Below are positions 18,245 to 20,637 of a stretch of DNA of 49,023 nucleotides, piece by piece (the stretch's first letter is position 1; every line of letters begins with the position of its first letter). The notes below the pieces were generated by a model that did no database searches, was not told where the DNA came from, and saw nothing but the letters and a program-made list of their open reading frames with translations. This DNA comes from Rozella allomycis CSF55 (lineage: Eukaryota), in assembly GCA_000442015.1 (NCBI GenBank), contig KE561207.1, positions 1-49,023 of the forward strand, written 5' to 3'. The position numbers were made by a program, and so were the translations under genes.

Positions 18245-20637
18245 TTAAATCAAATGTCGTAAAATAGCAGTAACATCAGCAGGATTTTCCACATAGTATT
18301 TTGCTTCAGTATGCTTCTTTCCAACTGTCGCAGTTATTGCCAAAGGATCAGATTTCAGATTTGAAAAAATAACTTCATCGGTCTTTCCATCACCAATGCA
18401 AATGATTAAATTTTCCTCTGGAAAGTCGCTGAGAATGGACTTGACTGCGGTTCCTTTGTCTACTAAACTAGGACGTAGTTCCACGGTTTTGGTGCCCAGA
18501 ACAATCTAAGTGTAAAAATTTTAATTCATTTACAGAGACAGCCAAATGGCTTAATAATTTTTCCAAGTTGATCTTTAACTCGGCGCTTTGCCATTCTCCA
18601 AACTCTGGATCAGCATGATGAAAGTGCCACGTTAAGTTAACTTCTTTTTCTTCAATAAAAGAACCTGGAGTTCTTTCAGTGTAATGTTGAAATAATGGCC
18701 TTATTGTTTCTCTCCATGATGAATCAGTTTCATCAGCCAATCTTTTCCATTCTCCATTCATTTTTGCCGGATGCTTAACAAAACAACCATGCTCAGCACA
18801 AAGACCTACACCAGTTTCACCAAACCATTCATCAAGGTGAAGTCTACTTCTTCCACTTAAAATATAAACATAAATGTCATCCTTGTCAGACAAAGTTTTT
18901 AGAATGTCTAAAATATTTTGCGCGGGTCTTGCAAATTCAGGAATTTTAGGAAAACTAGTTAACGTTCCATCGTAGTCTAAAAAGACCAATTTCTTTCCAT
19001 TAAAAGTGTTCCATTTTTCCAAGATAATAGAAGGAGCTAATTTTAATAACTTCACAGCTCTTTCATCACTAATTCTTTTCAATTCTTCAATGAAGTTCAA
19101 TCCCCAGTAAGCAGCTGTATATTTAGTAACGTAACGATACAATTTTTGGTGATTATTCTTTTTGCATTCATCATTTAACGTTAAAGATTCATAAATCGCT
19201 GAAGCTAATTCATCTGCATTCCAAGGGTTAACAATTATTGATCCATTCAAACTTTGAGCCGCACCAGCAAATTCACTCAATATTAAAACTCCATGTTTAT
19301 TCTTTTGTGACGCAATAAACTCATAAGAAACCAAATTCATTCCATCACGAGTTGATGTTATAATACAAACGTCTGCCACATGATAGAGAGCAACTAAATC
19401 TTCAAAACAAACAGACTTGTAAATGAAATGAATTGGCATAGACTCCATCGTACCTTTTCATGTTTCATTAAAATTATCAATTACCAAATTTTCCATTGAT
19501 GCATCCCACTAATTGGTTTACTGAACTTCTTAAATTTTGATATTCTTCAACATCTGTTCTGCTTGGAACGGCAACTTGGACTAAGACTACCTTTTCCACA
19601 AATTCGGGATGCTGAGTTAAAAATAGATCTAAAGCATTCAACTTTTGAGGAACCCCTTTAATGTAATCCAACCGATCTACACCAATCAAAACCAAAATTT
19701 AGAATAAAGATTATTTTTTTACTTTTTTCCCTTGAAATTTATCTTTTAATCTTTCAATCTTTTCCAAAACTTTTGGGTTTTCCAAGCCTTGATCGAATTT
19801 ATCGGGATCGATTCCAATAGGAAAAGTTCCCACTTGAACCAATTTGCCATCATACTCAACCCCATTTGGCGCAGTAGACAGTCCTAGTATTCGGGTACAA
19901 CTTGAAAGAAAATGTCTTGCATAATCATAGGTATGAAACCCAATTAAATCACTGCTTAATACACCCATCAAAACTTGTTTTCTCACTGGCAAAATTCTAT
20001 CATTTCTATTTCAAGGCATTACCTGTATACTTCAGACGAAGGAAACGGAGTGTGCAAAAAGAAGCCAATTTTAATATTAAACTCTGGTCCTATCTTATCT
20101 TTGAGCATTGCTGGTAACAACATCAAATGATAGTCATGGACCCATACGATATCATTCTTTTGAACCACTTGAGAAATGGCTTCCGCAAACATCCTTTCTA
20201 TACAAATTTTACTGTTTACTGATTCGCTGTAACATACGCATCCCAAGCATTATCATCAAAATTGATATCCCCTGGCAGATAATGAAACAATGGCCACAAA
20301 ATACATGTAACTGGCAGCAATACAAATTACCTATTAGAAAACCCATTATAGTGCATTTCCGCCACATCATTCGGCAAGAACACTGGCAAACAAGAATATT
20401 CTTCCAAAAGCCTATTCTGCACAATTTCTTGATCCGCTTGGTTCAATTCCATTCCTATTTCAAGAAACAGATTTGGCTACCTGGCCACCCGATCCATATA
20501 AAAGATGTCGTCTTTTTCAAGCCAGAAAGGGCTGACACCAGACCACCTGAACTCATAGAAAACGTCCAGTCATCTTGTTCCGTCTTTGTTATTGTTATTG
20601 GGAGTCTGTTTGACACTACTATGAGCCGTTGTTCCAT
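18245..20637 (-). CDS. Fused trehalose-6-phosphate synthase (GT20) / trehalose-6-phosphate phosphatase (HAD)
   Basis: RLIVVSNRLP, SSGGLVSAL, YNGFSNSILWPLFHY, WVHDYHLMLLP, GFFLHTPFPSSE, GVDRLDYIKG, RDGMNLVSYE; then VFLDYDGTL, LSGRS, CIGDGKTDE. Confidence 0.95.
19693..19722 (-). other. Predicted non-canonical GT..TG intron (30 nt)
   Basis: gtaaaaaaataatctttattctaaattttg contains two in-frame stops and no AG; removal gives GKK|VLIGVDRLDYIKG. Confidence 0.75.
20304..20330 (-). other. Predicted non-canonical GT..TG intron (27 nt)
   Basis: gtaatttgtattgctgccagttacatg; removal gives YNGFSNSILWPLFHY; the only internal AG is out of frame. Confidence 0.75.

Follow-up and report, generated by a model that had tools for sequence, protein, structure and literature searches.

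Candidate GT..TG introns in a trehalose-6-phosphate synthase/phosphatase fusion gene of Rozella allomycis CSF55

The TPS/TPP fusion gene

The contig of Rozella allomycis CSF55 considered here, a window of 49,023 nucleotides (nt) that is the whole stretch of DNA analysed, carries on its minus strand a gene for a fusion of trehalose-6-phosphate synthase (TPS, family GT20) and trehalose-phosphatase (TPP). The gene model runs from an ATG at 20637 to a stop at 18247-18245 and has eight exons, with a coding sequence (CDS) of 2196 nt that specifies 732 amino acids (aa). Its seven introns are 26-31 nt long; five end in AG (26, 26, 26, 31 and 28 nt) and two, introns 2 and 5, appear to end in TG. The gene and the features that bear on these two introns are listed here.

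18245..20637, minus strand: TPS/TPP fusion gene (GT20 trehalose-6-phosphate synthase plus trehalose-phosphatase), from a coordinate-built model, Pfam and homologs
19693..19722, minus strand: candidate intron 5, 30 nt, GTAAAA...TTTTG (GT..TG), phase 0, a multiple of 3, from open reading frames, alignment, Pfam and PDB
19677..19678, minus strand: first AG 3' of the intron 5 TG, 16 nt away, in GTAG|AT; its use would give a 46-nt intron and a 282-aa product
19642..19722, minus strand: the only frame-keeping GT..AG alternative for intron 5, 81 nt, which would delete VLIGVDRLDYIKGVPQK
20304..20330, minus strand: candidate intron 2, 27 nt, GTAATT...ACATG (GT..TG), phase 2, a multiple of 3, with one in-frame TAA

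Under this model the 2196-nt CDS is open throughout, with neither frameshift nor stop, and all eight exons are open. Pfam searches of the open reading frames (ORFs) of the TPS exons covered positions 2-473 of GT20, with the GVDRLDYxKG motif present, and positions 1-235 of Trehalose_PPase. For GT20 positions 57-125 the coverage comes from the homolog alignment alone, the two encoding exons being shorter than 50 aa and unscanned. This domain assignment agrees with alignments of 60 homologs (MAFFT, the first 60 of 120 homologs retrieved with exon 7) and with solved TPS structures. The conserved TPS motifs inspected in the homolog alignments are all intact. The nearest relatives are the TPS/TPP fusions of chytrids and Mucoromycota, with 58-65% identity over the 329-aa exon 7. 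The exons hold none of the stops, frameshifts or lost motifs expected of a processed or decaying pseudogene. On the opposite strand a 181-aa stop-free frame (20105-20647, plus strand) lies antisense to the first TPS exons; without a match to any family, it has most likely arisen by chance.

Intron 5

Read on the minus strand from 19722 to 19693, intron 5 is GTAAAAAAATAATCTTTATTCTAAATTTTG (13% GC). Its codons in the upstream frame are GTA AAA AAA TAA TCT TTA TTC TAA ATT TTG, and at the acceptor, position -2 (T) falls at 19694 and the last base (G) at 19693. A preliminary description of this DNA had pointed to the 30-nt stretch, its GTAAA donor, its two in-frame TAA stops and the lack of an internal AG, and all of these are seen in the letters. 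Its phrase that there is no AG at all holds within the 30 nt but not beyond, since an AG lies 16 nt downstream. That AG had been called out of frame, correctly: splicing to GTAG|AT at 19678-19677 would remove 46 nt, shift the frame and reach a stop after 12 residues.

The ORF before intron 5 ends in ...KDKFQGKK(VKK*) and the one after it reads (IL)VLIGVDRLDYIKG, the junction being GKK|VLIGVDRLDYIKG. The statement that GT20 enzymes are contiguous at this site is borne out by homologs, Pfam GT20 and PDB 6jbi_A. Of the 60 aligned homologs, 59 are gapless over FxGxK-(V/L/I)(L/I)(V/I)-GVDRLDYIKG; P0051, a fragmentary model, is alone in having a gap there, of 10 residues. Pfam GT20 positions 182-276 correspond to residues 5-96 of the ORF before the intron, the match ending with the second K of GKK; positions 277-347 correspond to residues 3-73 of the ORF after it, beginning with the V of VLIG. 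Residues 177-268 and 269-338 of 6jbi_A match the pieces on either side and abut at 268|269. Homolog alignment, Pfam GT20 and 6jbi_A, three independent rulers, thus agree in placing the predicted break at K|V.

The same protein results when both borders are shifted by +1, +2, +3 or -1 (TA..GG, AA..GT, AA..TT, AG..TT), so that the sequence cannot by itself fix the borders of intron 5 or prove GT..TG over TA..GG. Among these versions GT..TG is the sole one with the GTA donor of the genome. Removal of 24 or 27 nt in frame would leave two or one extra residues, respectively.

Intron 2

A second GT..TG case, which the earlier description had missed, lies at 20330-20304 in the same gene. The stretch is GTAATTTGTATTGCTGCCAGTTACATG, and its GC content (37%) is the same as that of the CDS. 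The T at position -2 of the acceptor is 20305 and the G is 20304. The flanking ORFs share one frame and are parted by a single TAA. Excision of exactly 27 nt, and no other, yields NGFSN-S-ILWPLFHY, that is NGFSNSILWPLFHY; NGFSNS(I/L)LWPLFHY is found in 20 of the 24 homologs displayed, and the other 4 are truncated or aberrant N-terminally. The intron also holds an out-of-frame AG (20312-20311), which stands 20 nt from the donor and precedes the TG by 7 nt. The presence of a second such intron argues against a one-off error at intron 5.

The lengths of the two stretches raise the question of whether they are removed at all. Both are multiples of 3, in frame, and interrupted only by TAA, as they would be if they were kept in the RNA and passed by TAA read-through or ribosome hopping, or if a U-to-A edit created an AG before splicing. 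Read-through would insert 9 and 10 residues into highly conserved GT20 motifs, where 20/24 and 59/60 homologs have no insertion. The stretches also begin with GTA and, at least in intron 5, have the composition of introns, and TAA acts as a stop elsewhere in the window, e.g., at the end of the O9G_003580 gene (P0244). Pre-mRNA editing had been offered earlier as an alternative to a TG acceptor; nothing speaks for it, and we know of no U-to-A editing system. Explanations of this kind are thus very improbable.

Predicted products of alternative splicing

The outcomes open to a spliceosome confined to AG acceptors can be enumerated for both introns. At intron 2, AG splices would remove 20 or 59 nt and give frameshifted products of 111 and 98 aa; at intron 5 the 46-nt AG splice would give a frameshifted product of 282 aa. 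The lengths of these 20-, 46- and 59-nt introns have no match in the intron set of the window. Intron retention would give products of 94 aa (intron 2) or 273 aa (intron 5), the latter a stump. The 81-nt splice at intron 5 keeps the frame and removes the catalytic motif GVDRLDYIKG. Exon 6 residues 4-72 align to residues 257-325 of Escherichia coli OtsA (1gz5), so the R and K lost in this way are those at OtsA 262 and 267, which we take to bind the phosphate of UDP-glucose.

Only exact removal of the 30 nt would therefore give a full-length, motif-intact enzyme. The earlier proposal that the TG acceptor is obligatory stands in this sense and not in a wider one: it would be obligatory only for productive mRNA. 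The donor, the length and the AT-richness of intron 5 are like those of other introns in the genome, which makes a TG acceptor the simplest reading. Taken together, the observation reported in the preliminary description is confirmed and its interpretation is partly supported.

As for intron class, both donors start with GTAA and match the donor consensus of the organism. Both lengths are inside the range of the genome and both excisions restore the conserved frame; intron 5, and not intron 2, is also AT-rich. Neither stretch ends in the AG expected of U2-type introns. U12-type introns have the donor consensus /(A|G)TATCCTT and the branch box TCCTTAAC. A U12-type identity was rejected: the donors are GTAATTTG and GTAAAAAA, with no (A|G)TATCCTT, and the branch box TCCTTAAC is absent from both introns.

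Ordinary introns of the gene and the window

The five remaining introns of the TPS/TPP gene, all placed by homolog alignment, are of the usual kind.

20455..20480, minus strand: intron 1, 26 nt, GT..AG
20194..20219, minus strand: intron 3, 26 nt, GT..AG, with an internal AG at 22 nt passed over
19997..20022, minus strand: intron 4, 26 nt, GT..AG
19454..19484, minus strand: intron 6, 31 nt, GT..AG
18506..18533, minus strand: intron 7, 28 nt, GT..AG

To collect introns across the window, ORFs were chained under a score for codon usage that had been trained on exons with Pfam support. Of the 142 candidates obtained, 101 are GT..AG of 20-40 nt; two regions judged to be antisense artefacts (28250-32250 on the plus strand, 38000-39100 on the minus strand) were left out, and 87 GT..AG introns remain. 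A GTA start is present in 84 of these 87, and position +4 is A in 77% of the 84. In 82/84 the length is between 24 and 31 nt, and two are outliers (mode 26-27, mean 28.0, standard deviation 2.3), a tight distribution that is partly built in by the chaining bonus for 24-32-nt and GTA introns. Chaining with no length or GTA preference was too noisy, real exons being skipped by 'introns' of up to 120 nt, and the lengths given here are therefore drawn from the biased pass and from the homology-checked TPS introns. Short lengths have two independent supports, these TPS introns and the introns of about 30 nt mentioned in the part of Whelan et al. (2019) used here. Mean GC is 0.25 for the 84 AG introns vs 0.37 for the TPS CDS. 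Ahead of the AG the most frequent base is T (60%), followed by A (24%), C (12%) and G (5%). An intron density of 2.5 per kb is given for Rozella in the section of Lim et al. (PMC8476143) drawn upon.

A scan of the window for other non-AG introns, in which chaining could use any acceptor at a penalty, proposed about 30. All but the two in the TPS gene were rejected, most of them because they bridge intergenic gaps or antisense ORFs. The candidate at 3765-3741 follows a natural stop and precedes the start annotated for O9G_003580. At 21823-21798 the reading frame changes and no GT..NG intron can account for it; a frameshift in the draft is more likely there. Those at 16896-16871 and 33349-33378 have AG alternatives and lie beside assembly duplications.

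Distance of the 3' splice site from the donor

In the 84 GTA..AG introns the site used is related to distance. The used, frame-keeping AG is the first AG at least 24 nt from the donor in 79/84 introns. An unused AG occurs 12-23 nt from the donor in 37/84, and in 27/84 a further AG lies within the last 12 nt ahead of the one used; 3' site choice is thus clearly not a matter of the first AG. A homology-backed example is TPS intron 3, where an AG at 22 nt is passed and the one at 26 nt is used, the sequence ANQMFAE being obtained solely with the 26-nt form.

For the TG introns the next AG is 46 nt (intron 5) or 59 nt (intron 2) from the donor, and there is none within 24-31 nt. The TG itself is 30 nt from the donor in intron 5 and 27 nt in intron 2. 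Within the 24-31-nt interval intron 2 has no other NG dinucleotide, and intron 5 has one more, 3' of the TG.

Proposed mechanism

We lean, with modest confidence, towards the reading that both stretches are genuine U2-type introns of a functional TPS/TPP gene and that productive mRNA is made by GU...UG splicing. Since no AG lies within 24-31 nt, the TG would be used. We infer that the spliceosome uses the TG and keeps the terminal G, with some help, perhaps, from neighbouring AGs. The 3' site would be set mainly by its distance from the 5' site or the branch. AGs nearer than about 24 nt would be skipped and the first AG at 24 nt or more would normally be taken; where there is no reachable AG, the second catalytic step would take a G-terminated dinucleotide at the usual distance. 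In the structures of the yeast and human spliceosomes, the last intron G pairs with the first intron G in the catalytic centre. Retention of the terminal G would preserve this G-G pairing, with position -2 alone relaxed. The nearby AGs (16 nt downstream in intron 5, 7 nt upstream in intron 2) may aid early recognition of the 3' site, as has been proposed for human tandem acceptors. By-products spliced at AGs or left unspliced would carry premature stops. The equivalent of an A-to-T change at position -2, found twice next to a lesion-free 2196-nt CDS, fits tolerance of TG better than random damage or error.

A more general form of this proposal, that Rozella sets its 3' site by a ruler of about 24-31 nt which needs only a terminal G, AG being preferred and not required, is tentative and on balance doubtful. 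If it were true, constitutive GT..TG introns (perhaps also GT..GG and GT..CG) would be expected genome-wide, silently breaking gene models, and the missing annotated protein for a well-conserved TPS/TPP gene would be explained.

Alternative explanations and assembly quality

Several observations weigh against GT..TG splicing, in its specific or its general form. The TG type makes up 2 of about 86 window introns, both in one gene, a pattern not expected if the spliceosome behaved this way in general. An NG at 24 nt or more (7 of them TG) is bypassed for a later AG in 13/84 AG introns, so that AG is clearly preferred when present and TG is at best a poor site. No enriched or positioned branch-point motif was found in the 84 AG introns, and the length bonus described above also counts here. 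Human AG>TG mutants activate neighbouring AGs and not the TG, according to the part of Szafranski et al. (2007, PMC2374985) consulted. Searches of protein sets with exons 6 and 7 returned no annotated protein with the TPS exons. The contig is a draft with 45 Ns, some of its single-N joins being flanked by uncollapsed near-copies (99 nt at 96%, 28 nt at 93%). The protein of O9G_003580, 15 kb from the TPS/TPP gene, differs at 5/297 aa between the two public CSF55 assemblies, and the other allele of the TPS/TPP gene could, by the same token, carry AG. The joins with near-copies are these.

16900-17099 (N at 16999): single-N join with tandem near-copies, 99 nt, 96%, in the CYFIP-like gene
33461-33517 (N at 33489): single-N join with tandem near-copies, 28 nt, 93%, in the hybrid histidine-kinase gene

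The near-copies resemble contig ends or haplotypes that were left unmerged, and the models of the two genes would be corrupted by them.

The quality of the assembly bears on a consensus error or allelic variant, under which both acceptors would read AG in the true sequence or the other haplotype, the T being what the assembly happened to keep. This would need two independent hits, both at position -2 of an acceptor and both A>T transversions, while all 6 mismatches in the overlaps are transitions. The 2.2 kb of surrounding coding sequence shows no frameshift or stop, and the TG sites are far from Ns, the nearest being at 21374. We regard this explanation as unlikely, though it has to be taken seriously.

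The behaviour of the human mutants and the missing protein bear on a second explanation, that the TGs are real and the allele is dead, dying or throttled. The TGs would then go unused, and retention or out-of-frame AGs would give products of 94-282 aa; the gene could be a young pseudogene, or unproductive splicing could hold its expression low. The location of both lesions within one gene is in favour of this. Against it, none of the eight exons is interrupted, exon 7 shares 58-65% identity with the chytrid and Mucoromycota enzymes and the motifs are intact. Random decay would be expected in exons, as stops and indels, rather than twice at the same acceptor position (an estimate only), and the TGs stand exactly at frame-restoring positions of modal length. 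We regard a non-functional or throttled allele as rather improbable, though as a serious rival. None of the readings explains why both TG introns are in one gene.

Annotation of the gene

In a set of 5.8 billion proteins there is no protein with at least 90% identity to exon 6 (129-2000 aa searched) or exon 7 (180-2000 aa). The best match to exon 7 is 65% among proteins of 577-2000 aa and 63% among those of 180-576 aa. For exon 6 the best match is 82% (129-2000 aa), and the top-scoring entry, P0121, is from a chimeric 420-nt contaminant contig. Exact look-ups of three forms of the TPS ORFs showed them to be absent from the protein set. Judged from this absence in one collection, the two public Rozella proteomes seem to lack the TPS/TPP gene or to hold it in broken form. 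Such a gap is what would be expected of predictors that insist on AG. With no public protein holding the TPS exons, inventories of Rozella metabolism may be under-counted; trehalose synthesis is at issue, in the sister lineage of the microsporidia.

Neighbouring loci

O9G_003580 (P0244) is at 2690-3694 on the minus strand, and P0241 is its protein from the second assembly, with the 5 differing residues mentioned above. Its annotated model drops 87 nt in frame, whereas chaining favours a 27-nt GT..AG intron at 3294-3268. A TFIIIC-like gene (22407-25585 onward) has a frame switch at 21763-21887 (minus strand) with no GT..AG or GT..NG intron of 24-31 nt; the draft may be wrong by 1 nt here, or this may be a further unusual junction. 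The CYFIP/Sra1-like gene at 14100-18236 (minus strand) has FragX_IP and CYRIA/B Rac1-binding domains and at least 13 tiny introns. Its product is presumably a WAVE-complex subunit, one that to our knowledge is absent from most fungi.

The long multi-exon gene at 32113-39346 (plus strand) has protein-kinase, AAA_16, GAF, HisKA, HATPase_c and receiver domains; its product is a hybrid histidine kinase whose N-terminal region is Ser/Thr-kinase-like, and the introns of the kinase gene are ordinary. Downstream of M12 metalloprotease-like exons is an 885-aa low-complexity open frame (45459-48113, minus strand). On the opposite strand a chain of long acidic, valine-rich ORFs (45958-47463, plus strand) scores as coding in the codon model; these are probably antisense artefacts of the repeat.

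Significance and comparison with known systems

The AG at the end of U2-type introns is among the firmest rules of gene structure, and where TG exceptions are known, they are always by-products alongside an AG that works. What would be new here, if it holds, is that TG is the only productive acceptor, and that in two introns of a genome whose introns measure about 27 nt. If true, 3' site choice independent of AG would have a natural example, in a genome that routinely skips AGs nearer than about 24 nt, and the way the second step finds its site would become testable in a minimal 27-nt intron. Gene finders bound to AG will split or drop genes with TG introns. No report of non-AG acceptors in Rozella was found in the literature searched, a body that did not extend to the genome paper of James et al. 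2013.

A close parallel is provided by human tandem acceptors. In the part of Szafranski et al. (2007, PMC2374985) available for comparison, every TG acceptor of a human U2 intron has an AG within 28 nt, and in no case is the TG the only 3' splice site; TG-AG tandems are described for GNAS, TSPYL2 and 36 genes. A functional GT-TG junction in human GNAS is likewise cited in the portion of Parada et al. (2014, PMC4176328) used. The Rozella introns share with these the U2-type GT donor and the TG end. With AGs 16 nt downstream (intron 5) and 7 nt upstream (intron 2), they also have the geometry of the human tandems as given there. Intron 5 resembles the human sites in having a pyrimidine at -3 and a purine at +1, while intron 2 differs, with A at -3 and T at +1. 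Human TG sites, so far as the cited part describes them, are minor or tissue-specific beside a productive AG. In Rozella, by contrast, the TG junction alone would give the functional frame, as read from sequence, and it occurs twice in one gene, in introns of 27-30 nt vs hundreds.

Among fungi, GT-TG junctions backed by transcripts occur in Ganoderma lingzhi, where the section of the study drawn on (PMC11590231) gives 22 of about 92,000 junctions (0.024%) and states that gene models break when they are ignored. The Rozella case differs in its frequency within a 49-kb window (2 of about 86 introns), in its restriction to one gene and in being deduced from DNA alone.

Very short introns themselves have precedents. 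Two putative introns of about 30 nt in Rozella S23, which introduce stops and lack conserved 5' and branch motifs, are mentioned in the part of Whelan et al. (2019, PMC6349667) consulted. The introns of the window are like these in length (24-31 nt), and the search for a branch motif in them found none either. Paramecium, Stentor and the nucleomorphs of chlorarachniophytes have very short, length-constrained introns, and the narrow length distribution in Rozella is similar. So far as is known, such tiny-intron systems keep a strict AG, often TAG, and we know of no description in them of a non-AG acceptor used when the window has no AG. In budding yeast the first step is AG-independent, and the 3' site is settled at a late stage, according to its reach from the branch. 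Yeast requires YAG, and UG mutants block step 2. Apart from this strict need for YAG, in which the two would differ, second-step choice in yeast offers a plausible framework for the Rozella introns.

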